Positions 5,386 to 56,551 of a stretch of 64,000 nucleotides of DNA are shown piece by piece. Numbering within the stretch: the stretch's first letter is position 1; every line of letters starts with the position of its first letter. The DNA lies in IMG/VR virus record IMGVR_UViG_3300021387_003827, positions 1-64,000 of that record. One strand, written 5' to 3'. The notes under the pieces are model-generated. The model saw only the letters and a program-made list of their open reading frames with translations, did not search any database and was not told where the DNA came from. Source of the DNA: a virus. Taxonomy: Duplodnaviria > Caudoviricetes. The position numbers and the translations under genes were made by a program.

Positions 5386-5892
5386 CTATTTCTTTAGTTT
5401 TCCAATCAAATGTCCGGCCACGGCACCAATTCCTAAACCGCTGGTAGCACCGAGAATAGCACCCCTTTTTAAATATTTCTTTCCGGTTGGGGTATCATCA
5501 GCAAGAAGAGACTCGTAATTACCAGACTTAAGCTTTTTGTTTTCTTCTCTAAGCTCTTTATTTTCTCTTGGTATGTCTCTCCATAGATCATCAGCCATTT
5601 CAACTTCAACTCTATCAAGATCATCCCAGGAAGATTCAGGCCCTCTTTCTTCTCTTTCTTTCTCGGCCCTTTCCTTGTAAACTGGATAGGCCTTCTTATT
5701 AGCTTTTATCTGCTTTTTATTCTCCTCTATTTTCTTTTTCGCGGCCTCTTTCTTTTCTTCATTGGTTGCTTTCTTTATCCCCGCCTTAGCACCAACAATA
5801 GTGCCTGCAACAAGACCGGCTGGAGCAGCAATAAGAGCACCCTTAATCATCTTAGAGGCCTTGGAGTAGTTTTTCTGTCTAAGTATAATCAT
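5386..5892 (-). CDS. Leader-tagged protein with two Gly-zipper hydrophobic segments
   Basis: Leader MIILRQKNYS (M4 of track ORF); GALIAAPAGLVAGTIVG and GAILGATSGLGIGAVAG. Confidence 0.8.
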   Translation of the reverse strand: MIILRQKNYSKASKMIKGALIAAPAGLVAGTIVGAKAGIKKATNEEKKEAAKKKIEENKKQIKANKKAYPVYKERAEKEREERGPESSWDDLDRVEVEMADDLWRDIPRENKELREENKKLKSGNYESLLADDTPTGKKYLKRGAILGATSGLGIGAVAGHLIGKLKK

Positions 5893-5903
5893 AAAATACA
5901 ATA

Positions 5904-5964
5904 CTACCCGGGAATTGATTAAAACTACCCCCCCCGGATAGAAATTTTAATGGGAAGGGGTAAG
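5904..5964 (-). ncRNA. Putative H-type pseudoknot, copy 1
   Basis: Sense strand S1 UUACCCC/GGGGUAG, S2 CUAUCCGGG/CCCGGGUAG; ends 11 nt before AUG. Confidence 0.7.
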
Positions 5965-5968
5965 CGCA

Positions 5969-6310
5969 TCATACTTTTACTCTTATTTCTAGTGCTCGTT
6001 TTGTTCTCTTATTCTCTAGACCAAAACACAGAGAATCATTTTCTAGATAAACGGCATATAACTCTAGGTCTTCTATTTTCCCTATCTTCGGATTATTGGA
6101 TACCTTTTCCTTGATCACTTCCTCTAAATTTCCTAGGGTCTCTTTTATGTTCTTCGACGTGTCCCTAGATATTCCCTTATTAAATACATAATATGTGCTA
6201 TCCCAGTTGGTTGTAATCTCCATTAGATCTGGGGCCTTTCTAGAATAATTGCATTTCTCTACTAGATCAAAAAAGTCGAGAATATTTAATTTCTTTTGAA
6301 AGATTATCAT
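5969..6310 (-). CDS. Hypothetical protein, degenerate leader MIIFQKK
   Basis: ATGA overlap with upstream gene. Confidence 0.7.
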   Translation of the reverse strand: MIIFQKKLNILDFFDLVEKCNYSRKAPDLMEITTNWDSTYYVFNKGISRDTSKNIKETLGNLEEVIKEKVSNNPKIGKIEDLELYAVYLENDSLCFGLENKRTKRALEIRVKV

Positions 6311-6795
6311 AGTCTATTTTGTATTAGTTTCTGGGAGTTTCGGAGATAGTTAATAACTTTATCATTCTCGTCATCCTCCCAGTATCTATTCTTTGTCCAA
6401 TCAATCTCATCATTCTTAAACTCTTTAAGAATTCCTTGCTTTACTTGCTGAAAAGATACTGGCTTTCCGTTTCGATTGTTGTCTATCCAGGTTTTCTTTT
6501 CAGTATCATAAGAAAAATCAATTCTGCCCTGTGGTGATTCTACAACTGGAATTATTTTTGTTTCTGGAGTTATCTCATCTTTTCTTAGTAGAGTATAGTA
6601 ACTCGCATATTCATCACCATCCCCGAGACCCGGATAGATCTTATCCAGCTCTTCCTCAAGCGATTTCAGCTTATTATACTCCTCTTTTGGAAGCCTAGAC
6701 TCTATTTCGTTAATTCTGGCCTGTTCTGTCTTCGTTTTATTAGATTTAAAAAGACCGGAGAGAAAGCTATATGTCTTCTGTCTCTTAATTATCAT
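6307..6795 (-). CDS. Leader-tagged protein, possibly SUKH/SMI1-KNR4-like
   Basis: MIIKRQKTYS; IESRLPKEEY...IIPV...G...SFQQ loosely resembles SUKH (family call weak). Confidence 0.6.
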   Translation of the reverse strand: MIIKRQKTYSFLSGLFKSNKTKTEQARINEIESRLPKEEYNKLKSLEEELDKIYPGLGDGDEYASYYTLLRKDEITPETKIIPVVESPQGRIDFSYDTEKKTWIDNNRNGKPVSFQQVKQGILKEFKNDEIDWTKNRYWEDDENDKVINYLRNSQKLIQNRL

Positions 6796-7586
6796 AGTAT
6801 TGTATTTATCTTATTATTAAACTCCTTGATCATCTCTATTTGCTTGTCGGATAAGGTATCATCAAGCTTTTTGAGATCAACCATCAGGGTTTTCTTGAGA
6901 GATTCAGAATAATCGGGGCTATCTACACCATATTTCCCTGTATTAGGACTATAACAAAGCCAACCATCATCCCCTGCTTCGTTATATGTGGCTAAACAAA
7001 GGGTACTAAATCCATCATCGTTCTCTATATTCCACCAATCTTCTGTAGTTTTTGAGTTAATAGGAATTGGGAAATATGTCTTAAACTCAGGAACTTCATA
7101 CACCTCATCTATTTTCTCTGAATCCATGCTAGAATACCAGAGCTCTATTTTCTTTGACCAGGTGTCCTTATAGAATTTGACATATTTCAAGAATTCGGCG
7201 GGAACAGGTATTTTCTTAGCTAGAGCTTGCCAAGAGGAGTAATTTAGATTCTTTGCAAGTGTCTCATCAAATCCTCTATTGTTTTCTATGGCTTTCTTTA
7301 TTCTCTTAGAGTTTTCCTTATCAACCTTCTCTCTTACCTTTGGATCGTGGTCATATTCCCACTTTGACTTTCCACTATCCCAACCAGACTTTGCTCCAGC
7401 TATGCCACCAATTAAAGCACCTGTCCCAGCAATGCCAGCAGCCAGTTTATATTTTCCAGAAAGTGCGGCTAGTTTCCAGCCAGGCATTACAGCAGCACCA
7501 ATACCTGCTCCATACCCAGCACCTTTAATTGCACCACCAAGAGAAGATGTGAATTTAGAATATGTCTTCTGTCTTAGTATTATCAT
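6792..7586 (-). CDS. Leader-tagged protein: Gly-zipper N-domain plus globular C-domain (possibly SUKH-like)
   Basis: MIILRQKTYS; GAGYGAGIGAA / GIAGTGALIGGIAG; IPVPAEFLKY...GDDGWLCY. Confidence 0.7.
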   Translation of the reverse strand: MIILRQKTYSKFTSSLGGAIKGAGYGAGIGAAVMPGWKLAALSGKYKLAAGIAGTGALIGGIAGAKSGWDSGKSKWEYDHDPKVREKVDKENSKRIKKAIENNRGFDETLAKNLNYSSWQALAKKIPVPAEFLKYVKFYKDTWSKKIELWYSSMDSEKIDEVYEVPEFKTYFPIPINSKTTEDWWNIENDDGFSTLCLATYNEAGDDGWLCYSPNTGKYGVDSPDYSESLKKTLMVDLKKLDDTLSDKQIEMIKEFNNKINTIL

Positions 7587-7730
7587 AGTTTATTGATTTT
7601 TTAATACGGCTTTTCCCAAGGACTGTCACTAAGTTTTGCAAGGTTTCTTTGCCCATTTTATCTAGTCTATCACCAAGTTTTTACCAACTTTGTAAGTTTT
7701 TAGTGACCCCTTCAAAAGAATATATTGTCT

Positions 7731-8234
7731 TTATAGTACCTTCTTCATTGCCGTCAGTCCTCCCCAATAGAAATCCTCGTCGGGCGAACTAATCTGACCA
7801 ACCTCTTTAAATCCAAGTTTTTCGTAGATATGTCTTGCATCTGGTGATATACCCGGTACTTCTAATGTTAGGGTTTTGTATCCTCTTTCTTTGGCAAACT
7901 TTATAACCCACTTTAGAACTTCCTGAGCAAATCCGTGACCTCTATATTTCTCATCAATTTCAATCCACATTACATTTAGTTCTTCTTTGGATATCTCAGT
8001 TAAATCCAGGGCGCCGATATTAGTTTTTCCTTCTAGTATATCATAGTCAGCTAAAGTTTCTAGTGTTCTTATGTTTTTAGAGCCAAATAATTTAGCCAGG
8101 ATTTTTGATATAAACGAGGCAATATGTCTAGTAAACCAGGAATCTTTGACTTTTTCTAGATGTATTCCGCGAAGGTCTATTTCTTCTGGTGCATCAGTTC
8201 TAAATGAATACACTCTTTGACGTTTAATTATCAT
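7731..8234 (-). CDS. Leader-tagged GNAT acetyltransferase
   Basis: MIIKRQRVYS; acetyl-CoA motif IDEKYRGHGFAQ and ARHIYEKLGF. Confidence 0.88.
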   Translation of the reverse strand: MIIKRQRVYSFRTDAPEEIDLRGIHLEKVKDSWFTRHIASFISKILAKLFGSKNIRTLETLADYDILEGKTNIGALDLTEISKEELNVMWIEIDEKYRGHGFAQEVLKWVIKFAKERGYKTLTLEVPGISPDARHIYEKLGFKEVGQISSPDEDFYWGGLTAMKKVL

Positions 8235-8755
8235 TTCTTCTTGGATTTTTTAATTCTTTCTTTAGTGTTAATCTCAGCCCCTAACCTGGCTGCCTTTCTT
8301 TTCTTAATTATCTTTGGGGCCTCTTTAGCTATAACACTAGTCGCACCAAGAACAGCAGCGCCCATAGCAATCTTCTTAGAGTTCTTTCCGAGGCTAGATT
8401 TTATGTTTTGTGGAATTTTTATATCAAGCCCATAGTTTTTAGCATTATTTTCTATAAAATCAGGGGACTTAGAGATAAGATATCCACCCACTCCAGCAAT
8501 AACTCCTCTTTTAGCGGCTTTTCCAACTGGTTTCCCAATATTATCAAGGGTTGCTTCTTTCCCTGCTGCCTTCTTCGCCGCTTTAATAATTTCTTCGTCA
8601 GACTTTCCTTCTTCTGCCGCTTTGTCTGCAGCCTCCTTTCCAACTCTAAAATATTTCTCAGCATCTACCTTACCGTTTCCATCTTGTATCCAGCCAATCC
8701 CTATTCTAGAATCTTTAAGTTTTTCAGAATACGTCTTTTGTATTAGTATTATCAT
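8231..8755 (-). CDS. Leader-tagged basic protein with two hydrophobic segments
   Basis: MIILIQKTYS; GVIAGVGGYLI, IAMGAAVLGATSVIA. Confidence 0.75.
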   Translation of the reverse strand: MIILIQKTYSEKLKDSRIGIGWIQDGNGKVDAEKYFRVGKEAADKAAEEGKSDEEIIKAAKKAAGKEATLDNIGKPVGKAAKRGVIAGVGGYLISKSPDFIENNAKNYGLDIKIPQNIKSSLGKNSKKIAMGAAVLGATSVIAKEAPKIIKKRKAARLGAEINTKERIKKSKKK

Positions 8756-9894
8756 TTCTTTCCTCTCCTTTTCTTTTTCTTTCCCAAGCCCATTTCTTCA
8801 TTAACAAAACGATTAATATCCTTCTGTTTAGGATGCTTAGACGTATCTTCGGGATGATATTTTTTATATAATTTTTCATTAATCATCCCTTCACCAACTT
8901 TAGCTGCAACCATCCCACCAGCCAATCCTGCACTGATTGCTGCATTGCGATTAGATATCTCTCTGTTTCCTTTAGTGAGTATTTCAGCAGCTCCATTACC
9001 AAGAGCATTGGCCAAAACTGCAGTAGAAGAAGCTCTGCTAATGTTTCGGGCTCTTTTCAGTTTTCTTTTATCTTTCTCAAGCTCCCTCTCTTTGTCGGTC
9101 ATCTTGCTTTCTTCCAGCTGCCTCTTTTTATATTTATAGGCTATATTCTTAGCAGCTTTTGATCCTAGAGTAGAAATCGCTGCTCCAGCTACATAACCAT
9201 TAAACGCTTTGCCATTTGATTTCCTAGCGGCTTTTAATAGTTTCTCTGACGCCCCGGCCTTTTTGAGAAGTTTTTGGCCGTAAATAGACGCAGCACCTTC
9301 TGACACTAAAACGGGAACGTATGTTCCGGCTGAGAGATATGGAGCAGCTTTACCTATTTTGGATTCTTCTTCTCCCCTCTCTTCTTTTTTGGCTTTATCA
9401 ATACCAGCCGCAATACTAGAAGATATTCCAGCAACTCCAGCTATATTTTGGTCTAAATATAGTTTATGAGCTATTTTTGGAACTAGGCCTGCTTTTTTGT
9501 CAGCGTGAAAGTGTGCATGCCCTAATTCATGTGCCAAAGTCGAGGCATCCTTATCTGCGACCCTAATAATCTTTTTCTTAAAATCATATGAATCATTTCT
9601 TTTCATGGTATTGGGCATGTGTTTTATCCTTGTCTTAGACTCTTTTCTCAGCTTATCAAAGACTTCTTCACTTTCTTCTTTTATGGCAGGATCTTTTCGT
9701 AGAAGTTTCTTTATTTTCTTTTTAACCCGGCTGTCTCCAGACTTCTCTTTTAATTTCTCTTGAAGTGGAGCAGCAGCGCCTTCTATAAAGTACGGTAATG
9801 TTCCTCCAATAGCTGCCGCCGTTAATACTCCATTTTCAACTTTAGAGCCTTTCTTTTCCTTTTTTGAAAAAGCTCTCTGTCTTAGTATTATCAT
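8752..9894 (-). CDS. Leader-tagged membrane zinc metallopeptidase (HExxH, Zn_peptidase_2-like)
   Basis: MIILRQRAFS; TLAHELGHAHFH with downstream VSEGAAS and GYVAG; several hydrophobic helices. Confidence 0.75.
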   Translation of the reverse strand: MIILRQRAFSKKEKKGSKVENGVLTAAAIGGTLPYFIEGAAAPLQEKLKEKSGDSRVKKKIKKLLRKDPAIKEESEEVFDKLRKESKTRIKHMPNTMKRNDSYDFKKKIIRVADKDASTLAHELGHAHFHADKKAGLVPKIAHKLYLDQNIAGVAGISSSIAAGIDKAKKEERGEEESKIGKAAPYLSAGTYVPVLVSEGAASIYGQKLLKKAGASEKLLKAARKSNGKAFNGYVAGAAISTLGSKAAKNIAYKYKKRQLEESKMTDKERELEKDKRKLKRARNISRASSTAVLANALGNGAAEILTKGNREISNRNAAISAGLAGGMVAAKVGEGMINEKLYKKYHPEDTSKHPKQKDINRFVNEEMGLGKKKKRRGKK

Positions 9895-19864: not shown

Positions 19865-19877
19865 ATCTTTTTCTAAA

Positions 19878-19943
19878 AACTCTGGGGGAATCTTTAAACC
19901 TATTGCCCCCTCCCCAAAGTCTATATATTTTTTAAAGGGAGCA
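19878..19943 (-). ncRNA. Putative H-type pseudoknot, copy 3
   Basis: S1 UGCUCCCU/AGGGGGCA, S2 GACUUUGGGG/CCCCAGAGUU. Confidence 0.7.
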
Positions 19944-21106: not shown

Positions 21107-21116
21107 AAAATATCAT

Positions 21117-21860: not shown

Positions 21861-21872
21861 ATCCAATTTTAT

Positions 21873-38198: not shown

Positions 38199-38201
38199 TA
38201 T

Positions 38202-45505: not shown

Positions 45506-46574
45506 GATAATTTATAAAGGCTTAGAATTAAAGTCTCTTAAAGGATGTAAATATTTTAACGTAGTAGAGGGAACAACTACTTCTCTCGTTGAGGACACTA
45601 GGACATCAACATTGACCCTAACCTACATTCCAGGAAATACTTCTGAGTCTTTAGCAAATTTTCTCGGACTTAAGAGTTATGGGGACCCTAAAGAAATGAC
45701 CCCAACCGGAAAAGCGGTTAAATTCAAGGATGTTACTGTCTCACTTAATGGACTAGTCTTAAAGAAAATGACATATGATCCACACGTAATTCATATGGTT
45801 ATAGTACGAGACAGTGAATCAAGAGTTGTTCAGAACTATAATACTACAACATTAGTAATTTCTTCTGAAGACTATGAAAATGAGGATTTTATAAATTTCC
45901 TATTTTATTCAGGAAATCTTATATATCTCAAGGCAATAGGGAAAAAGCCTAAATGCTATAAGATAAGAAATTTTCCAAAAATCTTAGTCAAAGATAGTAA
46001 TCTGACGCTAGAATCAGACTCTAAGGTATCATATGTCCTTAGAAGATCTTATGATGATTATGTAATACGGGCGATTGACTATCAAAATCAATTTGTTCTT
46101 GAACTTAGAAGAATACTTGATGAATATGGGATAGAATTTGTGCGTTGGAATAAAGAGGAAACATTAACTAATACCTCTTATATATCATATCAATTTAATC
46201 AAACCCCAACGAGAATTCATCATCCCAACCGAGGAGAAGAAGATCGTGTAATGCAACATAGATTACCGGTGGACTTTACTCTTCGAACTCCAGATATGGT
46301 CATGTTTTTTGATTTCAAGAATAAATATAACAACGTCGACCTACTTACTAATTTTTGTGAATTTAGAACTTCCGATAGATATGGTGAAAGATGGACAGCT
46401 GCAGTAAAGTGGCAACAGATCACGGAAGATTTTAATCACAACTATCAACAAGACGATAATGCCAACTTTTCTTATCAATGTCAATTTAGGGCAGAACTAT
46501 ACTTTTATGAAGTATTAGATGAGAGATATAAATTCTTAGAAGAAATTCAATTAGAGTTGGATAATAGTTTATAA
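45495..46574 (+). CDS. Virion structural protein (neck / tail-terminator candidate)
   Basis: Position after capsid gene; beta-rich C-domain; no leader. Confidence 0.5.
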   Translation: MTNEIIYKGLELKSLKGCKYFNVVEGTTTSLVEDTRTSTLTLTYIPGNTSESLANFLGLKSYGDPKEMTPTGKAVKFKDVTVSLNGLVLKKMTYDPHVIHMVIVRDSESRVVQNYNTTTLVISSEDYENEDFINFLFYSGNLIYLKAIGKKPKCYKIRNFPKILVKDSNLTLESDSKVSYVLRRSYDDYVIRAIDYQNQFVLELRRILDEYGIEFVRWNKEETLTNTSYISYQFNQTPTRIHHPNRGEEDRVMQHRLPVDFTLRTPDMVMFFDFKNKYNNVDLLTNFCEFRTSDRYGERWTAAVKWQQITEDFNHNYQQDDNANFSYQCQFRAELYFYEVLDERYKFLEEIQLELDNSL

Positions 46575-46575
46575 T

Positions 46576-46953
46576 ATGATAGAATTTAAGAAGAAAAAAT
46601 CTCTCGAACAGGATCTTATGCCAGATGCCATAAAGATGTTGAGAGATAGAAAAGTTTCATTTAATATAATAACTCCTGAAGAGGCTGACAAAGTATCCAA
46701 AGTAAACTCGAAGGCAATGGTTCTTATGTATTGCAAAAAGACAGAGGATGGATACTATCAAATACAGGTCAAAGATAAGGAGTTTTACGCTTATACAAGA
46801 AAGCTATTAAAAGATATTTTCAGAATGCGGCTTGTAAATGAAGATAAAAAAGAAAGAACGTTTACTGCCGAATGTGATCATAAAGGTCTTCTTGATGATT
46901 ATCTGGAAATTCTTGGATTAAAGTATGATTTATCCTTAGTCAAAAATGATTGA
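46576..46953 (+). CDS. Hypothetical protein, degenerate MIEFK leader
   Basis: Operon context. Confidence 0.7.
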   Translation: MIEFKKKKSLEQDLMPDAIKMLRDRKVSFNIITPEEADKVSKVNSKAMVLMYCKKTEDGYYQIQVKDKEFYAYTRKLLKDIFRMRLVNEDKKERTFTAECDHKGLLDDYLEILGLKYDLSLVKND

Positions 46954-47518
46954 ATTTAAGGAAAAACGCTTCTCTGAGTATGATGCTATGAGAAGCCTAT
47001 ATGTAGAATTGATGAAGTATGGTGATAGAAATAAATATAAAGTCATAGATCAATCACAACTTATTCCAATCCTAAAAGGAAATAATGTTGTTATTGAAAG
47101 ATTTGTCATATCTACTTCATTTCTACATAAAGATAAGTATAGAATGTACCTTAAGATAGGTGCTAAAGCTAAGATGCCGGATGATGTTCGCTTACCACAA
47201 CATGTCTATGATAAGAAACTTCTTGATGCTCAGATTAATATAACTCCTGCAATAAATGGAGAGAAGAAAGAGGAGAAGAAGTTTGCCTTTATCCAGAAAG
47301 AATTCGGAAAGGGTGGCGGCGGAAAGCCAACTATAAGCGGAAATTTATCATTCGGTGGAAATATAACCTACGACGTTAAGGAGCTCCTAGGGGATGCTGT
47401 AAAGTATGATAAAGAGGGCAGATCTCTAGTCCTTGAATTTAACTCTATACAGGATGCTATACGAGCGCTTAATATCCTTCCGTTCGGTTTGAATTATAAC
47501 ATTTATCTTCTGAATTAA
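46946..47518 (+). CDS. Leader-tagged protein
   Basis: MIEFKEKRFS; internal KKFA and QKEFG. Confidence 0.75.
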   Translation: MIEFKEKRFSEYDAMRSLYVELMKYGDRNKYKVIDQSQLIPILKGNNVVIERFVISTSFLHKDKYRMYLKIGAKAKMPDDVRLPQHVYDKKLLDAQINITPAINGEKKEEKKFAFIQKEFGKGGGGKPTISGNLSFGGNITYDVKELLGDAVKYDKEGRSLVLEFNSIQDAIRALNILPFGLNYNIYLLN

Positions 47519-47519
47519 C

Positions 47520-47729
47520 ATGATACTTAAGAGATTTTCATCTACCAAGATTTTAAATACTAATGCTCCCGGATTTATCAGAGGTAGAAAATATGACACT
47601 GACATGGATAGACTTGGAAGATTGGAAACCTCTGGTCAATTATCCAATGGTTTAGGAGAATTAGAGAAAGAAAAACGGAAGATGAAAGATGAATTAAATA
47701 AAGGAAGCTTATGGCAACGTACAGATTAA
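47520..47729 (+). CDS. Leader-tagged small protein
   Basis: MILKRFS. Confidence 0.7.
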   Translation: MILKRFSSTKILNTNAPGFIRGRKYDTDMDRLGRLETSGQLSNGLGELEKEKRKMKDELNKGSLWQRTD

Positions 47730-48064
47730 AGAGAAAATATTTTGGTACAGTCGGCGAAATAGGAAATGCTGCAGCCAATATAGTTGGTGGTACCGTCAAT
47801 GCTGCCAAAAATACCGCCGGAGCTGTCCTTGAAGGAACCGGTGGAGCAGTAAAGACAGTTAGTGGTCTTGCTGAACCTGTAGGTGCAGTTGGAGGTGGTG
47901 CTCTCGGTGCTGGACTTGGCCTTATTGGTGGTCCAGTTGGATCTCTTATTGGCGGAACTATCGGGTCAATGGTAGGAGGCGGAGCTGGAAAACTTGTGAA
48001 GACTACAGGAAAGGCAGTTGGGGAAGGACTCCAGACCGCCGGACAAGGAATGCAAGGTTATTAA
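47711..48064 (+). CDS. Leader-tagged Gly-zipper protein
   Basis: MATYRLKRKYFG; GAVGGGALGAGLGLIGGPVGSLIGGTIG. Confidence 0.78.
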   Translation: MATYRLKRKYFGTVGEIGNAAANIVGGTVNAAKNTAGAVLEGTGGAVKTVSGLAEPVGAVGGGALGAGLGLIGGPVGSLIGGTIGSMVGGGAGKLVKTTGKAVGEGLQTAGQGMQGY

Positions 48065-48068
48065 AGCT

Positions 48069-49364
48069 ATGATAAAGTTTGTACAAAAAGAATATGTTCT
48101 TCCTGCTCTTGGCGCTATGGCTTCAAGATTTCTAGCAACTCAAGGCGGTCAGTTGGTTGCTTCTGGGGTTGCTTCAGCTGCACCAATGGCCGGAGTAAGT
48201 GGCATTCTTGGTGCACAAGCAAATAAAACCGCAAAAGAACAGGGTCAAGAGATGATGGAGATGCAAAAGAGACAGATGGCAGAACAAAGAAAGATGTTGC
48301 AAAAACAGCTTGAAATTCAACAGCAGGCCGTCAATAAGGGTGTGTCTCCAACAGCTGAAATTAAGACTTTTGCTATAAATCCACAGACTCTAAAGAATAT
48401 TAAGGGTGCCGTTAAAGGGATTATTGATGTATCTCACTCAAATGGAAGAAATCTGACCAAGTCTGTAGTTCACGGATTAACCATGGGTGCAGGTATGGCA
48501 GGAGCTGGATACATCGCTAATAAGGCCATTGAAAAAGACGCCAAGAAGTCTGGGATTATATCTGATACTCCTGAAAGTGAAGAATCTAAGAAAAAGAGAA
48601 AGTCCAACTTAATAAAAGGTGCTGCTATTCTTGGAACTACGGCAGCCGCTCTTTATGGTGCAAGGAAAGGAAAACTTGGTGGTACTCTTCAAAATATGGT
48701 TTCTAAAGAAAACGTTGGAAAGCTTGGAGAATATGCAAAAGAGTCCGCCAAAGATGTTTTCAGCCCGATAAAGAAAGATGCTAAAACAGGAAAGAAATCC
48801 CTTAATGGTTCTGCGGCATTTACCTATGGAGTTGGTGCTGTTATGCCTGTAGTCGAATATAAAGCAAAAAAGAAGCAGATAGAAGAACAGGCTGAGAAGA
48901 CCTATGCAATTCCAGCAGGACTTGGAAAAGCTGCCCTAAAGAGGGTTGGTGTAGCGGCTGCAAAATATAAAGACCCACTGATTAAAGGAACTAAGTCTAT
49001 CGGACAATCAATTGGTAGATTCATTAAGGCCCCGATTACTAAAACTATGGATGGAATTAGTAAGTTATCCGGTGCTGGAATTAAAGAATCTAAAAGTTTT
49101 CTTAATGATGTCAAAGCCAAAGGGGTAAAGGAAAATAATCCAATACTCGAGAAATTAGGTGGACTAGGAAAACACCTCGATACCAATGAGAAAGGTAGAT
49201 TAAGTCTTAAAGGAAAGGCTCTTCTTGGTGGTGCCACTGTTGTAGGAAGTACAGTAATGTTTAAACCCTGGGAAATGGGTGAAAAGGCAGTAAAGAAAAC
49301 TCTTGAGACCGCTGATAAGAATGCATATGCTTATGAAAAGTCTCAGGAACAAGAAGTAAAATAA
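48069..49364 (+). CDS. Putative polyprotein of amphipathic / Gly-zipper units
   Basis: Start MIKFVQKEYV (M18 of track ORF); internal EIKTFA and AEKTYA. Confidence 0.72.
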   Translation: MIKFVQKEYVLPALGAMASRFLATQGGQLVASGVASAAPMAGVSGILGAQANKTAKEQGQEMMEMQKRQMAEQRKMLQKQLEIQQQAVNKGVSPTAEIKTFAINPQTLKNIKGAVKGIIDVSHSNGRNLTKSVVHGLTMGAGMAGAGYIANKAIEKDAKKSGIISDTPESEESKKKRKSNLIKGAAILGTTAAALYGARKGKLGGTLQNMVSKENVGKLGEYAKESAKDVFSPIKKDAKTGKKSLNGSAAFTYGVGAVMPVVEYKAKKKQIEEQAEKTYAIPAGLGKAALKRVGVAAAKYKDPLIKGTKSIGQSIGRFIKAPITKTMDGISKLSGAGIKESKSFLNDVKAKGVKENNPILEKLGGLGKHLDTNEKGRLSLKGKALLGGATVVGSTVMFKPWEMGEKAVKKTLETADKNAYAYEKSQEQEVK

Positions 49365-49365
49365 T

Positions 49366-49788
49366 ATGGGAACTTTTAAGATAAAAAGAAAGTTTTTCTC
49401 TAAATATGACGAAACTGACAACCTGAAAAGAATGAAGGACTCCGACATTCTTGCTGAAAAGAAGAAAGAGTCTCCTTCTCTTATTCCTACTGCCAGAGCA
49501 GGTATTACTGGAGCTTTGGCTGGTGGTGCTGTTCTTGGAACTGCCGGGATGATAAAAGCAAAGAAAGCAGGTTCGTCCATATTAAAGGGAGGAAAGAAAG
49601 GAGCCATAGCTGGTGCCTTACTTGGAGCCGCTGCTCTCGGTGCTTCCGCACTTAAGAAACGCGAAAAAGAATCTGAGGATAATCATTTCTATAACAAGAG
49701 ATTAGAATATGCCCAGAAACAGGCGAAGAGGAGAGAGGCTAAGGACTGGAAAGAAAATATGACCCAAAGAGATGGGTATTCATATTAG
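49366..49788 (+). CDS. Leader-tagged Gly-zipper protein
   Basis: MGTFKIKRKFFS. Confidence 0.78.
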   Translation: MGTFKIKRKFFSKYDETDNLKRMKDSDILAEKKKESPSLIPTARAGITGALAGGAVLGTAGMIKAKKAGSSILKGGKKGAIAGALLGAAALGASALKKREKESEDNHFYNKRLEYAQKQAKRREAKDWKENMTQRDGYSY

Positions 49789-49794
49789 TAAACA

Positions 49795-50802
49795 ATGATG
49801 ATTACGTTTAGTGAAAAGAAATTTGGTAAGCTGGGGAAGGCTGCAAAAAAGGGCATTGAATCGATACAGAATGATCCAGCCAAACTAATTATACCTGCCC
49901 TAACTTCTACTCCAGGCGTTGCTTTAGGTCTAGCTAATTTGACGGTCAATAAAGATCGAAGAAAGAAAGATCGAGAGTTACGTCAAGCCCAGATTGAAGC
50001 TACAAATAAATTAGTTGAAGCACTGGAAAATGAAAATAGAGCTGAAGCCAAGAGCAGGGCTATTAAATTAAGAAGAGCCTATAAGAAACCTATAGCGGAT
50101 GACCAAGTTCCTGCTGCACTAGATCAAGTAAAAAATAAAGTATTGAAAGGAGAAGATATGATTTCTTTTAAGAAAAAAGACTTTAGTATTCTTTCTGATG
50201 CTGTTTCTGGAGCCGCTATTGGTGGTACCCTGGGAATGGGAGCTACACCAATTATACTCAAGAAGAAAGATAAGATCGTACTCGGGAAAAAGGGAACCAC
50301 TATAGATCTAGACGGTGTAGGAAAAGGAGCCGTAGGATTTGCCGCTGGAACCATAATTGGCGCTGCTCTTGGATTAGTTGTTGGCGGAATCAAAGAAACA
50401 GCTAAATTCATAAATAGAGCCAGGACTGTAGATAAGAGACTGATGCCAGGTATAATCGAGGATCTAAAGAAAGGTAATTTCAAAGAAGGAAAAGACTTCA
50501 CTAGAGATCCTAAGACTGCAAATGAGCTTAAAACAAGAGTTTGCGTTGTAGTTACGAAATATTCTGGCGATCTACGGATCCTCATTAATACAGTATCAGA
50601 TCAGAAATTATCACAGATAACTAAAGACTCTATTAAGAATATACCAAATTCTTCTGTGGTCAATGAAAAGGTCACAGATAGATATAATGATATTACAGTT
50701 TCTACTATTTCAGATTCTTCGGCAGATCCTGCATTAATCTCTGGAATAGCGGAAAGATTTATAAGAAACGGTTATCCAGTATATCTGGTTGAAGTTGGTT
50801 AA
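49795..50802 (+). CDS. Leader-tagged protein with a second internal leader
   Basis: MITFSEKKFG; internal MISFKKKDFS followed by Gly zippers. Confidence 0.75.
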   Translation: MMITFSEKKFGKLGKAAKKGIESIQNDPAKLIIPALTSTPGVALGLANLTVNKDRRKKDRELRQAQIEATNKLVEALENENRAEAKSRAIKLRRAYKKPIADDQVPAALDQVKNKVLKGEDMISFKKKDFSILSDAVSGAAIGGTLGMGATPIILKKKDKIVLGKKGTTIDLDGVGKGAVGFAAGTIIGAALGLVVGGIKETAKFINRARTVDKRLMPGIIEDLKKGNFKEGKDFTRDPKTANELKTRVCVVVTKYSGDLRILINTVSDQKLSQITKDSIKNIPNSSVVNEKVTDRYNDITVSTISDSSADPALISGIAERFIRNGYPVYLVEVG

Positions 50803-50824: not shown

Positions 50825-52990
50825 ATGGCAGAATGGAATGAAACTCTTGAGCCGTATATAAAAGTTCAGGAAAGAATCAAATCCGCAACGCAAAATCCTA
50901 CTACAGGAGATGAGCTCATTATTGGTGTTGCTATAGTGTCGGATGCTGGTTCTGGAGATCCTACCCTTGTTCGCGGTCAGAAGGAGTTTGTAGAAAAATT
51001 TGCTTCTCAAGAAGAAATAACCAGCGAATATCTATCATCGCTGGATAAATTATATGGGGACGGTACTTTAAATATCGCCTCTACTATGTGGGCTAACGCC
51101 TATAGACTTGCTGGATCCAATACTCTTTTGGTTACCAGAGCCACTAAGTCTGATAGCTCATATTTCACCAAACCTCTGTCTCCTGATCAGACTGTTGGTG
51201 GAAAGACCTTTATTCTCAAGGATGGAGAATTACTAGTTAGAGTGACTGGTTCAGCCGGAACTGGTGGAATTAAGTTTGTTATTGATGTAAATGGAGACTC
51301 TGCAGAACATGCCGGAACTGGCTGGTGTATTAATATATCTGACGTAGGAGTCTTTGGTAACCGCGTTGAAGATGCCGGCCCAGTATATGATTATCTAGCT
51401 ACCGATCTCCCTTCACTCGTAGAACAGTTAAACGAGACTTCTAAATTCTTCTCTCCAGACTATAAGTTCTATACGGATCTGGATGGCAAGACAACTCAAG
51501 AATGGAATGGTGTGAATCCTCTTGAAGTGAAGACTGTTCTCTTTAATGAATTATATATTGCCGCCAATATTCTTGACAAATCTGACCCAAGAATGGAAGA
51601 CGGTATGTATAATATGGTAGTAGCTGACTCTGATTGGCAGCTTACAACCCCTATTACTGAAAATATGGTTATAGACCTCAATGCTCTTGCCTCTGTGGAT
51701 TTCCCTGAGTATTATGTTATTAATGCATATAATTCAGCTACAGATCTGAAGGTGAGAATCAGACGGTTTAATCATGACGCAGTATCCTCTGTTGATGTTC
51801 CTGCTTCCACAGACCTTACGTCAGTCACAGCCTCACAATCACGACTCATAAGTGATTCTTATCTTGGGTCTGTTTCTGAAGATAAAGATTTCTACGAGGT
51901 TGCAATTCTTGATAAGAGTCTGTCCTCGACGGTTCTCTATTTTAACATAGGAACAAAAACTGGAAGAGGTGATATAACTGTAGATGAGCTTCAGGAGAAT
52001 ATGAAGATGCTTAGCTTTGTTCTTCCTGATGATATGGGTGATCTTGGTCTTAATTATTATGGAGACACCAGAGAAGGAAAGACCGATAAGCAAGAGATTC
52101 TCGTAAATGCTAAGGTTAATACGGACAGCAGTAAGATTCTCAATGTTACAGTAGATGATCTTAAGAAAGCCCTAGATCTTATCACCGAAGATGAGGTTTA
52201 TGTTACTGAGGGTCTTTCCGATCTTGGCTGTACAGATCTTACCTTCCAGAACTACATTGCTAATATCGCTATCAATGAAAATTACTTTATTCCTAACTCC
52301 ACAGTCAATAGTACAAACTATATGACTATTGGAAGTTTTGCAAAGAAGATTAATCGTGATAGTGAAAAGCAATATATGTCTGCACCTTGGGACATAGATA
52401 CTGCAACTCTCGGATTCAAATTTTATGCTAGTCCTTCTGTTCTATACTGGGAGACCGTATCAAAGAATAGAAGAAACAATAATGAATTTGCTTCTGTACT
52501 AGGTGAAACTACTGGTGTTGTGGGTTATCAGAGACCAGTAACCGAATTTAATAAAAAGACAAGACAGCTTCTTCTTACCAGAAAAGTCAATACTGTACTT
52601 TGGGATAATTCAATCTCTAACTGGTGTATGAATGATTGCTATACTACTCAATCTACAAATACCGTTGAAAATGAAGATGGTAATGCTAGATTAGTAATTC
52701 ATATCAGCAAGAATATTCCAGTCATTCTTAAGCAGTTTATTGGTAAGAAAATCAACGAGAAATTATGTTCTGATGTTGAAGGAGCTATTGGACATTGGTT
52801 CAAGATGTATATCCTACCTCTTGGAACTACTGTAGAAGCCTTTAATGTAGTTTGTAATTTTGATGCTGCTCTTGCCAGACAAAATAAGATAAAAGTTGTT
52901 GTTCAAGTAAGACTCCCCCGTGCTCTTAAGTTCATCGATGTTTACAACGACATCTATGATACCGGCATGGAGTTTGAGGTTGTTGAATAA
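50825..52990 (+). CDS. Tail sheath protein
   Basis: EPYIKVQE, PTLVRGQKEFVEKF; C-domain APW...SPS...RQLLLTRKVN...RL...RALKFI. Confidence 0.85.
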   Translation: MAEWNETLEPYIKVQERIKSATQNPTTGDELIIGVAIVSDAGSGDPTLVRGQKEFVEKFASQEEITSEYLSSLDKLYGDGTLNIASTMWANAYRLAGSNTLLVTRATKSDSSYFTKPLSPDQTVGGKTFILKDGELLVRVTGSAGTGGIKFVIDVNGDSAEHAGTGWCINISDVGVFGNRVEDAGPVYDYLATDLPSLVEQLNETSKFFSPDYKFYTDLDGKTTQEWNGVNPLEVKTVLFNELYIAANILDKSDPRMEDGMYNMVVADSDWQLTTPITENMVIDLNALASVDFPEYYVINAYNSATDLKVRIRRFNHDAVSSVDVPASTDLTSVTASQSRLISDSYLGSVSEDKDFYEVAILDKSLSSTVLYFNIGTKTGRGDITVDELQENMKMLSFVLPDDMGDLGLNYYGDTREGKTDKQEILVNAKVNTDSSKILNVTVDDLKKALDLITEDEVYVTEGLSDLGCTDLTFQNYIANIAINENYFIPNSTVNSTNYMTIGSFAKKINRDSEKQYMSAPWDIDTATLGFKFYASPSVLYWETVSKNRRNNNEFASVLGETTGVVGYQRPVTEFNKKTRQLLLTRKVNTVLWDNSISNWCMNDCYTTQSTNTVENEDGNARLVIHISKNIPVILKQFIGKKINEKLCSDVEGAIGHWFKMYILPLGTTVEAFNVVCNFDAALARQNKIKVVVQVRLPRALKFIDVYNDIYDTGMEFEVVE

Positions 52991-53089: not shown

Positions 53090-53824
53090 ATGCAAAAGAC
53101 CTTATTGAAAGATTTAAAAAAGAAGATATTTATAAGATCTTCTATGCTGGCGGTAAGCTCATTAGACGAAATATTTGGGCTTAATGATTATCTCTCACCA
53201 GATGAGGTCTTACTTGAAATAATAAAAAAGGCCTTAAGTGAGTTTGAGATATCTAACCCCCTCATTCTAGAGATGAAGGTATGTAAAGATCAAATGGGAA
53301 CCTGCTATGGAAGACAGGGATATTCAGAAATTAAGAGCAATTTTACACTTTACTTAGATTGCATGATATCTGAAGATCAAATTATTCTTGTTCCAACAGT
53401 TACCCCATACCTAAGACTTCTCAATAGTTATCCTGCTCCTGGGTCTTGGTATCCCGCTACAGACTATCAAGCACCATATCTTTTCACACAAGATATACCG
53501 TTTTATGGAGGTCAATTTTGGATAAGGGGAATTTGCTCCAGGCCGATTATTCCGGATTTTACACCGGATGGAAAGTTTAATGAGGCAAGTACAAAGAGCG
53601 CCATCTACTGGTTAAATATAGAAGAAGGAGCATTAGGAACTTATTTTATGGACCTCTGCATGGTTCATGTCTTAGATTATATCCGTCAACTCAAGGCATC
53701 TATTCAACTCCCCTCTATGTCTGTTGATGTGTTGGGAAATATAGATACAGCATATCAGGAGCTCAGAGCGAGGTGCGACCAATATCAATTACAATCTTCT
53801 TGGTACGGAGGACTACTAGTATGA
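53090..53824 (+). CDS. Neck / head-completion protein candidate
   Basis: Position and size; no leader. Confidence 0.45.
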   Translation: MQKTLLKDLKKKIFIRSSMLAVSSLDEIFGLNDYLSPDEVLLEIIKKALSEFEISNPLILEMKVCKDQMGTCYGRQGYSEIKSNFTLYLDCMISEDQIILVPTVTPYLRLLNSYPAPGSWYPATDYQAPYLFTQDIPFYGGQFWIRGICSRPIIPDFTPDGKFNEASTKSAIYWLNIEEGALGTYFMDLCMVHVLDYIRQLKASIQLPSMSVDVLGNIDTAYQELRARCDQYQLQSSWYGGLLV

Positions 53825-54354
53825 TTATATTACGACAGAAAAATTATTCTTCACCTCTTACTAAGGCTCTCTATAGAAAGGAGAAACTCGTATCTGGTTT
53901 AAAGAAAGGTGCTGCCGGACTAAGAACCAACCTCACTAGGGCTGTTTCAAAGTCTCCTCTTAGTCCAAAAGTTATAGCCGCACAGGAACTGGAAAGAAAG
54001 GTAGCAATTGACGGAAAGGCGGCAAAACGGAGAGCCATTCAATCCAAAAATAAGATAGAGGCAGCCAAGAATTATATAGGAACATCTACGCCGGGACAGA
54101 TTGCTTCTGATGTAGTTGGGGAAGTAATAAGACGACCAGTATTCGTTGGTGGTGCGGTCGGTGGATATGCTCCTTTGGCTTATGGAGTATATGTCCCTTT
54201 TACAACTCCGACAGCTTTAGCATTAGAAGAAGGCGCTAGAAAAATAGTTCCTGGGTATGCGAAAGTTACAGACTCCTTATCTAAAGCATATAATAAAAGC
54301 GGAAAGAGAGTGGTTTCGAACCTAGTAGATTCAGCAACTAAAGCTATTGTATGA
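53821..54354 (+). CDS. Leader-tagged basic protein
   Basis: MIILRQKNYS (M17 of track ORF), same leader as 5892. Confidence 0.78.
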   Translation: MIILRQKNYSSPLTKALYRKEKLVSGLKKGAAGLRTNLTRAVSKSPLSPKVIAAQELERKVAIDGKAAKRRAIQSKNKIEAAKNYIGTSTPGQIASDVVGEVIRRPVFVGGAVGGYAPLAYGVYVPFTTPTALALEEGARKIVPGYAKVTDSLSKAYNKSGKRVVSNLVDSATKAIV

Positions 54355-54962
54355 TAGAGTTTAAAGAAAAGATATTTTCCATAGAAAGTGGAAATTTTGA
54401 AGGAACTAAAAGAATTCCCAAGAAAGGAAAAGAAATTCTACATAAACTCCTATCTGGTGTCGATGCTGGGTCTGGTCTAAAGGGATTTCTCAGCAGTGGA
54501 GATGAAGTTTATAAATCTTCTAATTTCTGGGATAAGATTCAAGATTTTAATTCTTGGATTAAAGCTACTGCAGAAAACAGCCTCTTCAACTCCGGGAGAA
54601 AAAAGAAGTTTAACTCTTTTGATATAATTTCTGCATTAAGGGGAAAAATAGATATTAATAAAGACCCAAAAGACTATGTCGTATCAGCGTATAGTTTTGG
54701 CAATTCATTAATACTATTTATAAATAAGCCTAAGAAGAAAGAATTATCAAAATTAAATGACATATTAAGTAATTATTGTTTTGAACATAAGGATACAGAT
54801 TATGCGTCTGAAAGAGTTGACAAAAATACATACGTTGTTGATGTATATGTTCCGAAAGATGCCTCTATAGACTTAATTTCTGATATTATCGATGATGATT
54901 TCAAGGTAAACATAATTACTGGATCAAAATTTATAAGTAAAGGTCGACAAGTATATGATTGA
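54351..54962 (+). CDS. Leader-tagged protein, distant paralog of 54955..56184
   Basis: MIEFKEKIFSIESGNFEG vs MIEFIQKEFTLQEGHYTG; KELSKLNDILSNYC vs KDLEKVDNTLDYYC. Confidence 0.75.
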   Translation: MIEFKEKIFSIESGNFEGTKRIPKKGKEILHKLLSGVDAGSGLKGFLSSGDEVYKSSNFWDKIQDFNSWIKATAENSLFNSGRKKKFNSFDIISALRGKIDINKDPKDYVVSAYSFGNSLILFINKPKKKELSKLNDILSNYCFEHKDTDYASERVDKNTYVVDVYVPKDASIDLISDIIDDDFKVNIITGSKFISKGRQVYD

Positions 54963-56184
54963 ATTTATACAGAAGGAATTTACTCTGCAAGAGGGTCATT
55001 ATACTGGACCTAAGGATCAGGATAAATTACCCGGAGCTGTAGAAATTATAGGAAAAAGCGCGTTAGGTGGAGCTTTAGCGGGTTCTGCTGTCGGCGCAAT
55101 TCTAAAGGATACTACTGCCCTTGAAGGAGCAATTCAGGGTGGAAAATATGGAGCTCTTGCCGGCGTAATTCTTAAAGTATTTTTAAACTATCTTCATAAA
55201 CCAATGTCAAAAGTCAAGTTTCAGGAGGTAGATAGAAAGATACGTAAAGAATTTGGTATATATCGTGCTGCCGGAATTACTGTAGGAGACTCCATAAGTA
55301 ATAGAAAAGATGTTTCAGAGAAGTTTAGCTTCAATGATAGAAACGTTACGAACTATAAAATAACCATAACAGTACAAAATGATCAAGTGACTATGTATAC
55401 CTTTGGTCTTTCTGACAAAGATCTTGAAAAGGTAGATAATACCCTTGATTATTATTGTAAGAAATACTTTGGGATGAAATATAGCGCCTCTCTTTTATCT
55501 CAAAAAATGAATTCTTATGCCGTAACTATAGTCTTCACCAATTATCAAGTTATATCTAATTTCATTATGGAACTTTCCAATGAATTAGAGACGAAGATAA
55601 ATCTTATGGACAATGATGCTATAGTAGCTGGCAGACTTCAAGATGAAGAGGGAGAGGAGGATCAGAGAAATTTTAGTGTAGCCGAATTTGGAAAAAATGA
55701 TATTATAAAGATTCTTTCCGGCTCTGGGATATCTTTTATAAAGAATCTTACAAGAGGGAAAGGACTTGGGACGAGTATTTCCTGCGCTCTTCTTGAAATA
55801 TTATCAGGTTCGGCTAGAAAATTAACCAAAGATGAAATGGTTAAAGCAGGAATAAAGGCGCCTAGAGAAGCTTTCGGAAATAAGTATCTCTATGACACTC
55901 TTTTAAAACTTCATTATATTGACGGATTTAATTTCGTTTCTGGAGAAAAGAATTTCGACAATAATATGTCTATGATTGAAGGACTTTTTGTAGTAACTTC
56001 CTCCAAGAAAGATGATGTCTCTAAGATAGATAAATTATACTGGGGAAGTGGAAGAAATAAAATAAATAGGTCTAAGAATGGTGATGTTATTGTCTGGACA
56101 CATTCAATCCAAAGCCGAGTGGAATTCGAGTTCCTCTTAAAGAAATTAATGTCGTCTGGTATAAAATTTAATATATTTGAATAA
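54955..56184 (+). CDS. Leader-tagged protein with Gly zipper and internal RNFS site
   Basis: MIEFIQKEFT; EEGEEDQRNFS linker. Confidence 0.75.
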   Translation: MIEFIQKEFTLQEGHYTGPKDQDKLPGAVEIIGKSALGGALAGSAVGAILKDTTALEGAIQGGKYGALAGVILKVFLNYLHKPMSKVKFQEVDRKIRKEFGIYRAAGITVGDSISNRKDVSEKFSFNDRNVTNYKITITVQNDQVTMYTFGLSDKDLEKVDNTLDYYCKKYFGMKYSASLLSQKMNSYAVTIVFTNYQVISNFIMELSNELETKINLMDNDAIVAGRLQDEEGEEDQRNFSVAEFGKNDIIKILSGSGISFIKNLTRGKGLGTSISCALLEILSGSARKLTKDEMVKAGIKAPREAFGNKYLYDTLLKLHYIDGFNFVSGEKNFDNNMSMIEGLFVVTSSKKDDVSKIDKLYWGSGRNKINRSKNGDVIVWTHSIQSRVEFEFLLKKLMSSGIKFNIFE

Positions 56185-56185
56185 T

Positions 56186-56551
56186 ATGATAATCAAAAGA
56201 GAAAAAAATTTCTCTAAAATAGTATCTGATAAAATTTCTGCAAAACTAGATCGTGACGGTATTCTTGATTATGAGGTTTCTGATAAGATCTCAGATGATA
56301 GCATATCTATAAGTTCTGATCTTTCAAATGTAGAAGTGTTTATCCCAATTGATCTAGAATATTCTCAGTATCCGATAGATGATATTCTTAGAAAAGTGGC
56401 CCCTTATCTTAGGAGCACTACGAATCTAGAAAGAGACATCTATATTCTCAGGGTACAAGGAAAAATGACAGAGGATCAATATTATAAATTTGTCAAGGGT
56501 ATTATAAAATCTGAAGAATTCATAACTATCCTTGAGAAAGATTTTATTTGA
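56186..56551 (+). CDS. Leader-tagged protein
   Basis: MIIKREKNFS (M4 of track ORF). Confidence 0.72.
   Translation: MIIKREKNFSKIVSDKISAKLDRDGILDYEVSDKISDDSISISSDLSNVEVFIPIDLEYSQYPIDDILRKVAPYLRSTTNLERDIYILRVQGKMTEDQYYKFVKGIIKSEEFITILEKDFI

Follow-up and report, generated by a model that had tools for sequence, protein, structure and literature searches.

Results

Leader-bearing genes in the window

The DNA analysed here, hereafter the window, comprises the first 64 kb (64,000 nucleotides) of the IMG/VR virus record IMGVR_UViG_3300021387_003827, a single contig of 182,986 bp with 36% G+C, assigned to the Caudoviricetes. Between 5.4 and 56.6 kb it carries a head module, a tail sheath gene and, on both strands, several dozen genes whose products begin with the leader MIILRQKx[F/Y]S or close variants of it (Table 1). 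An initial annotation of this sequence had noticed the shared leader and proposed that it is an expanded counterpart of the capsid targeting sequence (CTS) of phage T4, i.e., a label with its own sequence through which proteins are loaded into the head and which is then removed.

A matrix of 10 columns, built from the leaders and run with a cut-off of at least 8 bits over 2,702 candidate start codons of the whole genome, gave 29 matches, with 28 of them located at 5,892-56,186 and a single weak one (12 bits) at 123,627. At 14 bits or more, the 9-mer without its Met occurred 23 times in the proteins, always right after the N-terminal Met and never internally, as compared to 0.25 occurrences in shuffled proteomes. 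A looser rule, M-x(1-9)-[KR]-x-[FY]-[STGA] applied to open reading frames (ORFs) of at least 60 residues, was satisfied by 36 of 69 ORFs in the 5-57 kb region versus 6 of 128 at 64-183 kb, and those 6 are unlike the leader and of the chance type. The short variants caught by this rule include MKLRRKLFS, MKIKLFS, MILKRFS and MATYRLKRKYFG, among others. Seven true starts (5892, 20487, 21860, 11935, 48069, 53821 and 56186) are internal to the longest ORF. With 23 strict, approximately 11 variant and approximately 5 partial leaders, the figure of about 40 tagged genes in the initial annotation is fair, and the number of tagged candidates is about 35-40.

The protein bodies behind the leader are nearly, but not entirely, unrelated as had been claimed: without their first 12 residues, 42 proteins fall into 35 BLASTP clusters, the largest having four members, so that a few small paralogue groups exist. 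The tag is missing from the TonB-receptor plug protein, the NadR-like protein, PnuC, the M42 peptidase, the Nudix hydrolase, the amidase, the two HNH endonucleases and the sheath, in agreement with the earlier statement for these identified proteins. This comparison is made up of identified genes; terminase, tube and tape measure were not recognised among the proteins.

Selection on the leader peptide

The codons of the leader vary from gene to gene. Ile is encoded by ATA, ATT or ATC, Leu by CTA, CTT or TTA, Arg by AGA, CGA, CGT or AGG, and Ser by TCT, TCC, TCA, AGC or AGT, the last spanning both the TCN and the AGY families, and Gln, Lys, Phe and Tyr are likewise each written with several codons. 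For pairs of leaders with the same residue, the fraction using the same codon is 0.48 versus 0.39 expected from genome usage. The 30 positions ahead of the start codon (-30 to -1) carry 0.0-0.6 bit each among the 22 strict-leader genes, i.e., they show no conservation, and MIILRQKxFS is kept in 27 of 32 homologues of the 380-residue HExxH protein at only 30-45% identity. The degenerate third positions, the alternation of Ser codons and the unconserved upstream region bear out the earlier suggestion that selection on the leader acts at the peptide level, and conservation restricted to the nucleotide level is not what is seen.

At least six tagged genes share an element of approximately 70 nt upstream of their start codons on the minus strand (5893-5965, 10422-10494, 19865-19937, 21107-21179, 21861-21933 and 23807-23879). 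It consists of a C-rich run, an A/T stretch, a run of 8-10 G and TTTAA..TTCCC..GTAGATA, and ends 10-15 nt before the ATG. It may serve as a late promoter, or it may form an RNA structure.

The head module and its internal sites

The head genes follow the order portal, small proteins, protease, core protein, scaffold and capsid protein. This is also the order of T4 genes 20, 67, 68, 21, 22 and 23, and the head module is of the T4 type in T4 gene order. The motif that ends the leader, [KR]-x-[FY]-S, is concentrated in this part of the genome, with a density of 0.56 per 100 residues at 37-57 kb versus 0.09 outside the window, the latter being equal to the compositional expectation. Site counts were tested for each protein against 5,000 shuffles of that protein. 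The protease contains 5 sites versus 0.35 in shuffles, the adjoining core protein 6 (at residues 10, 21, 34, 48, 62 and 93) versus 0.22 expected, and the scaffold-like protein 11 versus 0.19 expected; for all three proteins, none of the 5,000 shuffles reached the observed count.

The protease was recognised through its fold. Its AlphaFold2 model has a pLDDT (predicted local distance difference test) of 76 overall and above 85 in the N-terminal domain, and this domain aligns with T4 gp21 (5jbl) with a VIA-align Z of 10.5 and a root-mean-square deviation of 2.6 over 134 residues (Foldseek probability 0.96-0.99), and with herpesvirus assemblins with a Z of 7-8. We collected 146 homologues, none with a name or a Pfam family, and aligned 38 of them. 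D18, H51 and S137 are invariant in this alignment, and in the disordered linker the sole invariant residues are those of KxFS sites, namely S201, K216, S219, K246 and S249; the linker as a whole holds four to five conserved KxFS/KxFT sites. This anatomy suggests a protease domain followed by a cleavable linker and a domain that could anchor in the core. Sequence searches with the protease gave no Pfam or PHROG match and no PDB match, even with the profile of 38 sequences, and Pfam PF03420 (Peptidase_S77) had no match at E ≤10 in the whole genome. A complex prediction of protease residues 1-195, with alignment, and the first 40 residues of the product of 37200-37499 scored 0.02, which weighs neither way on binding. 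In L001 (3701-6596) and other relatives at 81% capsid identity, the protease is found as two ORFs of 76 and 327 residues approximately 200 nt apart, with a 482-residue ORF just upstream. The split could be due to an intron, another insertion or a frameshift.

The capsid protein scored 0.98 in Atlas feature comparison with clusters bearing PF07068 (Gp23), a comparison of features in which the Pfam scan itself had no match. Its two sites, KMFS and QKTFS, are kept in 30 distinct orthologues. The stretch ahead of the second site varies in sequence and length among orthologues, and GYAETPLLSTQYFNASV directly after the site is almost invariant, a pattern that looks like that of a boundary between propeptide and mature protein. 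T4 gp23 loses an N-terminal propeptide too. The portal was similarly assigned by model comparison without a Pfam match, with Atlas features of 0.97 against PF07230 (Portal_T4) clusters and a structural TM (template modelling) score of 0.61/0.47, and its orthologues keep QK[IVM]FG or EKLFG near the N-terminus. Against isolated phages, tblastn with the portal found no match, and with the capsid protein weak matches only, including a phage 'putative major capsid protein'.

Leaders compared with internal sites

From this genome and 16 relatives we drew 224 distinct N-terminal leaders and 503 distinct internal sites and set the two groups against each other, with P3, P1 and P1' fixed by the selection of the sites. 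Positions P9-P4 carry 0.8-2.6 bit in the leaders versus at most 0.7 bit at internal sites, the residues preferred in the leaders being Met, Ile, a hydrophobic residue, R/K and Q/R. The length of the propeptide has its mode at nine residues (94 of 230 leaders), with lesser groups at 8 and 11. The residue after F/Y is S in 151, G in 33, T in 26 and A in 20 of the 230 leaders. We infer that the cut falls between F/Y and this small residue, based on the P3-x-P1 spacing, which is that of the gp21 and giant-phage motifs, and on the suitability of S, G, T and A for P1'.

Not all leader-like starts end in this manner. In MIKFVQKEYV, MIILRQKEFR and MIRRRNKSYR, F/Y is followed by a bulky or charged residue, and their proteins may be targeted but left uncut, as is a T4 CTS with Asp at position 10 (PMC9026906). 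The first of these starts belongs to 48069-49364, a conserved 431-residue family (27 orthologues) that begins with MIKF-x-QK-x-[FY], followed by V, F or L and then by a hydrophobic Gly/Ala-rich segment; judged from this pattern, the family as a whole may be targeted and not cut. Between its two folded parts, the conserved product of 46946-47518 has a disordered low-complexity linker in which a second leader-like motif occurs (F-x-Q-K-E-F-G, KLFS in orthologues), and the protein may be cut into two mature pieces. Its fold gave a Z of at most 5 against 48,161 chains, and no match in BFVD.

Conservation among relatives

A search of IMG/VR with the capsid protein returned 79 related loci at 62-81% identity, on contigs of up to 401 kb. 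In all relatives examined the scaffold holds 11-14 sites and the core protein 4-7, 7-17 leader ORFs lie within 10 kb of the capsid gene, and the tags and the gp21-fold protease are found together. A strict degenerate DNA pattern for MIILRQKxFS had only 0-2 copies in the relatives because these carry other leader subtypes, and it was replaced by an ORF-level analysis of a complete 353-kb relative, rebuilt from fetched pieces. Leader-type starts were found there at 251-294 kb only, around the head and tail genes. The motif scan of the whole genome and of relatives called for in the initial annotation thus places the tag in the structural region, both here and in the complete relative.

The leader changes its subtype between relatives while the site stays in place. 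In orthologues of the 140-residue protein at 49366, the distance from the site to xWDDTDNLKRMKDSDILAE is constant across leader subtypes (for example KRKNF↓TRWDDTD, RKLF↓TKYDDTD and AQKEF↓TRWDD, where the arrow marks the predicted cut), and one variant has a 23-residue leader ending in QKEF↓T. For the HExxH protein (8752-9894), a peptide-pattern search of viral contigs found no relatives, and a protein search found 32 homologues.

Properties of the tagged proteins

Tagged proteins are basic, with a median isoelectric point (pI) of 9.65 versus 5.3 for the rest of the genome, and most are without a family match. The product of 8752-9894 has weak metalloprotease matches, and one of its homologues has PF04298. 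Together with its homologues (P0129-P0160), it is built of the leader, a Lys-rich stretch, a Gly/Ala-rich hydrophobic segment and the HExxH domain, and the first three of these elements recur in several other tagged proteins. Glycine-zipper segments are present in a few tagged proteins. We rejected a reading of the leader as a signal peptide or lipoprotein signal: there is no lipobox Cys, hydrophobic stretches occur in 19 of 42 proteins and often far from the N-terminus, and the internal sites would stay unexplained.

Table 1. Features of the leader region, in window coordinates. Functions are predicted, and arrows mark the predicted cut.
Coordinates	Strand	Feature	Details
5386-11450	-	Cargo arm part 1, eight tagged genes	9-residue leaders; matrix 30-34 bits
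5386-5892	-	Tagged gene	MIILRQKNY↓S
6307-6795	-	Tagged gene	MIIKRQKTY↓S
6792-7586	-	Tagged gene	MIILRQKTY↓S
7731-8234	-	GNAT acetyltransferase	MIIKRQRVY↓S; Pfam PF00583, 2e-10
8231-8755	-	Tagged gene	MIILIQKTY↓S
8752-9894	-	HExxH metalloprotease-like	MIILRQRAF↓S; HExxH at residue 122
9891-10421	-	Tagged gene	MIILRQREF↓S
10893-11450	-	Tagged gene	MIIKRQKLF↓S
11687-11935	-	Small tagged gene, short leader	MVIKRKIY↓S; true start is internal ATG at 11935
14514-15026	-	Partial leader, P1' Arg	MIRRRNKSYR; 12 bits
15023-15523	-	Tagged gene	MILLRNKSF↓S; 26 bits
19226-25227	-	Cargo arm part 2	
19226-19864	-	Tagged gene	MIILRQKEF↓R
19951-20487	-	Tagged gene	MILLRQKTF↓A
20492-21106 and 21186-21860	-	Paralogues	both MIILRERLY↓S; BLASTP clustering
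21979-22449	-	Tagged gene	MIILREELF↓S
22446-22715	-	Tagged gene	MILKRQNLY↓S
22712-23077	-	Tagged gene	MKLRRKLF↓S
23159-23806	-	Long leader, three sites	KCF↓S, KLF↓S, KEF↓S; Gly-zipper match
23901-24119	-	Tagged gene	MILKRKQKTY↓S
24170-24460	-	Tagged gene	MIILRQKEF↓G
24457-25227	-	Tagged gene	MKLKLY↓S
30312-30920	-	Tagged gene, 202 residues	MKIKLF↓S; body related to 6792-7586; weak Gly-zipper match
35500-37203	+	Portal, T4 gp20-like, 567 residues	N-terminus MKRNENLIQKIF↓G with conserved QKxFG
37200-39283	+	Small genes between portal and protease	gp67/68 position
37200-37499	+	Tagged gene	MIILRDKSF↓S
37474-37800	+	Tagged gene	MIILRKKTKSF↓S; orthologues keep leader, subtype changing
38870-39283	+	DUF5856-like	MIVYRSKLF↓T
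39519-40814	+	Prohead protease, 431 residues	gp21/assemblin fold 1-190; linker 197-277; helical C-terminal domain 280-412
40804-41448	+	Small acidic core protein, 214 residues	N-terminal third of six tandem 11-14-residue units ending [KR]xFS
41464-43611	+	Scaffold-like acidic protein, 715 residues	pI 4.1; gp22 position; 11 [KR]xFS sites
43637-45082	+	Major capsid protein, gp23-like	predicted propeptide 1-61; sites KMF↓S (36-39), KTF↓S (59-62)
45197-50802	+	Tagged genes between capsid protein and sheath	
45197-45505	+	Tagged gene	MTTYKIKRF↓G
45495-46574	+	Untagged gene	
46576-46953	+	Partial leader	MIEFKKKKSL
46946-47518	+	Tagged gene	MIEFKEKRF↓S; modelled: leader coil, first helix from residue 11
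47520-47729	+	Tagged gene	MILKRF↓S
47711-48064	+	Tagged gene	MATYRLKRKYF↓G
48069-49364	+	Leader-like start, bulky P1'	MIKFVQKEYV
49366-49788	+	Tagged gene	MGTFKIKRKFF↓S
49795-50802	+	Tagged gene	MMITFSEKKF↓G
50825-52990	+	Tail sheath, untagged, negative control	PHROG 23, 2e-06; one chance-level site
53821-56551	+	Four tagged genes downstream of sheath	23-34 bits; position-matched genes in relatives also with leaders
53821-54354	+	Tagged gene	MIILRQKNY↓S
54351-54962	+	Tagged gene	MIEFKEKIF↓S
54955-56184	+	Tagged gene	MIEFIQKEF↓T
56186-56551	+	Tagged gene	MIIKREKNF↓S

Neighbouring genes and genome context

PHROG and Pfam scans of approximately 70 proteins were mostly without matches, and the tail sheath was the sole large structural protein recognised. 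The matches were to sheath, amidase, M42, Nudix, GNAT, HNH, PnuC, NadR-like and TonB plug proteins, with weak ones to Gly-zipper and M78. Sequence searches of the PDB with the capsid protein, the protease, the protease profile and a 633-residue protein gave nothing useful.

At 246-4198, a TonB-dependent receptor plug protein bearing a signal peptide (246-2270) is followed by a NadR-like nicotinamide mononucleotide (NMN) adenylyltransferase/kinase (2494-3594) and a PnuC NMN transporter (3581-4198), which together look like a set for NAD salvage and uptake. An M42 aminopeptidase (1.7e-56) and a Nudix hydrolase lie directly upstream of the head module (32413-34268), and it may be more than coincidence that such an aminopeptidase lies beside a system expected to set free short propeptides by the dozen. 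Two HNH or homing-endonuclease-like genes (12221-13765 and 17512-19125, minus strand) are found near the gene of the 633-residue protein (15603-17504), one directly adjoining it and the other approximately 1.8 kb off; its homologue in the relative L063 (1319-3184) is close to the head module and has no HNH gene adjoining. A second, weak sheath-like protein (59555-60931; PHROG 23, E 0.005) is encoded downstream of the main sheath.

The record is flagged in IMG/VR as having direct terminal repeats, and its CheckV completeness estimate is 49%. Relatives of 353 and 401 kb (G001 and G004), with 71-75% capsid identity, also have terminal repeats and are rated complete. Either genome size differs twofold inside this clade, or the repeat call on the 183-kb record is an artefact.

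Discussion

A probable head label removed by the phage's own protease

The recurrence of the motif in three adjacent head genes and at the N-terminus of the capsid protein, together with the gp21 fold of the first of these genes, points to a prohead protease cleavage site. We consider it likely, on the strength of the sequence patterns, that [K/R]-x-[F/Y]↓[S/G/T/A] is the site of the phage's own gp21-fold protease and that the leader is a CTS-like head label removed there. Motif counts, protease fold, patterns of conservation and selection on the peptide were computed directly, and from them we infer a chain of events as follows. The upstream part of the leader (with Met at P9, a hydrophobic residue at both P8 and P6, R/K at P5 and Q/R at P4) would direct approximately 35-40 proteins, for the most part basic and unrelated to one another, into the scaffold core of the prohead, and at the end of the leader the protease would cut it off in the course of maturation. 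Concurrently, the protease would cut its own linker and shred the 214-residue core protein and the 715-residue scaffold, and in the same maturation step the capsid protein would lose approximately 61 residues. After this, the trimmed cargo would remain in the head with the DNA, and probably be ejected into the host; among it would be the GNAT acetyltransferase, the HExxH metalloprotease-like protein and several proteins that have Gly/Ala-rich hydrophobic segments. The proposal of a T4-like, expanded loading label with its own sequence is thus supported by the T4-type module, the identity of the leader end with the substrate motif, the information upstream of it, the basic cargo and the location of the genes, with packaging, cleavage and injection as predicted steps. 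The claim that the label lets the phage load any gene product is an overstatement.

Several observations weigh against this interpretation. The leader system is known here from its genes, from which the presence of the tagged proteins in the head and their cutting are predicted. Among the genes from the capsid protein to the sheath and just after the sheath, where neck or tail genes are expected, twelve are tagged, and searches assigned a function to none of them; should some encode tail parts, these would be out of reach of a protease that acts in the prohead only, and a model restricted to the head would need revision. Approximately 45% of the tagged proteins (19 of 42) have an uncharged hydrophobic stretch, so that some could be membrane proteins instead of capsid contents. 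To these must be added the leader-like starts with a bulky or charged residue after F/Y described above. Lastly, the protease is linked to gp21 by its fold with no sequence match to Peptidase_S77 or a PDB chain, and the mapping of H51 and S137 to the gp21 catalytic residues is based on invariance and chain order.

The alternative closest to the proposed label is that the motif is a cleavage site only, the leader being a propeptide without an addressing role, with MIIL-RQ serving in docking or folding and the proteins entering the head via their mature parts. The core [KR]x[FY]S is indeed found also at internal sites, which need no addressing, extended substrate recognition at P9-P4 could account for the added conservation, and assembly of phage 80alpha depends on an N-terminal leader that serves some purpose other than targeting (PMC5744158). 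But then 35 unrelated bodies would each require their own route into the core. Cutting at the internal sites presumably takes place with no signal at P9-P4, the motif of the leader is found only at the N-terminus and a set number of residues from Met, and in T4 the 10-residue CTS is sufficient for packaging (PMC9026906). We thus regard this explanation as unlikely, albeit the most serious of the alternatives. A further one is that the leader is cut by another protease, of the host or the phage, in the manner of Prp, in which case the tagged proteins need not be in the head. The capsid and scaffold proteins of Staphylococcus phage 80alpha lose short N-terminal leaders through a Prp cut at F↓A, and Prp also acts on a tail protein of another phage (PMC5744158); those leaders resemble the present ones in being short N-terminal peptides with an aromatic P1 and a small P1' (PMC5744158), and a protease of this kind would account for tagged genes among the tail genes. 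Against it, the densest clusters of sites are in the linker of the gp21-fold protease and in the adjoining core and scaffold proteins, a distribution characteristic of a prohead protease, tags and protease co-occur throughout the relatives examined, and Peptidase_Prp (PF04327) has no match at E ≤10 in the phage genome, a result that bears on a phage enzyme and not on one supplied by the host. This makes the Prp-like reading improbable.

Least probable, to a degree that leaves it little weight, is that the shared start is a feature of the nucleotides or of translation (an AT-rich initiation region of late genes, or a recombination cassette through which genes are shuffled), or a recognition peptide of a modifying enzyme, and not a capsid signal. 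In its favour are the AT-rich codons of the leader, a same-codon fraction slightly higher than expected, the upstream DNA element common to at least six tagged genes and the one radical-SAM protein encoded in the genome. Yet the degenerate third codon positions, the exchange of TCN and AGY codons for Ser and the lack of general conservation upstream of the strict-leader genes argue for a signal in the peptide, and the radical-SAM gene is approximately 105 kb away from the nearest tagged gene. Moreover, this explanation leaves unaccounted the presence of the same motif in the scaffold, the core protein, the protease linker and the capsid propeptide.

Possible functions and significance

The packaging of an enzyme has a precedent in T4 Alt (PMC9026906). 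Based on the proposed head label, we tentatively suggest, with somewhat more reservation than confidence, that nine residues let a Bacteroidota-type clade of jumbo phages load into the capsid several dozen fast-evolving proteins as first-strike effectors delivered with the DNA, among them the acetyltransferase, the zinc metalloprotease and glycine-zipper proteins that may act on membranes, and that P1 of the protease shifted from Glu to Phe/Tyr together with its substrates. If true, the capsid-carried and probably injected proteins of an uncultured jumbo phage would be readable from its genome via one short motif, yielding approximately 35-40 candidate effectors of host takeover or anti-defence. 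A gp21-type protease that shifted its P1 from Glu to an aromatic residue, with dozens of substrates following, would be a clear case of enzyme-substrate coevolution. The tag and the protease could also be made into a tool to package foreign proteins in phages of this clade, much like the CTS in T4.

Comparison with known systems

In T4, the CTS is carried by IPI, IPII and IPIII, which are internal proteins, and by Alt, and is removed by the prohead protease gp21; of its 10 residues, 4 and 7 serve targeting, and 8 and 10 serve processing (PMC9026906). As in T4, the leader described here has an upstream part under its own constraint followed by a cut site, and forms short N-terminal propeptides, of 10-19 residues in T4 and mostly of 9 here, on proteins that are otherwise unrelated and for the most part basic (PMC9026906). 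Its end is a head-protease motif of P3-x-P1 layout that recurs in scaffold, core proteins and capsid propeptide, and the two systems further share a gp21-fold protease, a gp23-like capsid protein, a gp20-like portal and the gene order. They differ in the motif itself, which is [K/R]-x-[F/Y]↓S here and [L/I]-x-E↓ in T4, with an aromatic residue instead of Glu at P1, and in the number of substrates, approximately 35-40 candidates deduced from genes alone versus nine cleaved proteins in the T4 head protein table (PMC9026906). The protease also differs, in having no Peptidase_S77 sequence match and in its long helical C-terminal domain behind a multi-site linker.

Large heads with many internal or ejected proteins are likewise found in phiKZ, 201phi2-1 and SPN3US, whose proteases are gp175 and gp245 (PMC10052503, PMC5694885). 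Common traits, in part predicted ones here, are a gp21-related protease, a P3-x-P1 motif, a self-cut that removes a C-terminal part and a processed portal. Both T4 gp21 and SPN3US gp245 cleave themselves (PMC9026906, PMC10052503), and gp245 prefers Ser at P1', as here (PMC10052503). In contrast, the motif of these giant phages ends in Glu with a small P3 (such as Ala), and their propeptides are mostly long (111-254 residues) and non-uniform. In SPN3US, 9 head proteins are cut and 42 uncut (PMC10052503), whereas here one short uniform leader is present on most candidates. In the Prp system, which acts on L27 and on 80alpha proteins, non-homologous phage proteins likewise carry short leaders at the N-terminus, and the cut follows an aromatic residue (F↓A, compared with the predicted F/Y↓S of the present phage) (PMC5744158). 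But Prp is a host cysteine protease of another fold with two or three known phage substrates, and no homologue of it was found in this genome. Herpesvirus assemblins share the fold of the protease, and their substrates are only the protease and scaffold precursors, with no cargo set. They cut between Ala and Ser, so that Ser is at P1' as here but P1 is Ala and not aromatic. Our literature search found no published description of such expanded leader sets in uncultured phages. What differs here is the basic-x-aromatic specificity, the uniform nine-residue leader and the number of candidate substrates. The principle is that of T4, and since it is already known from there, the finding widens a known mechanism instead of adding a new one.

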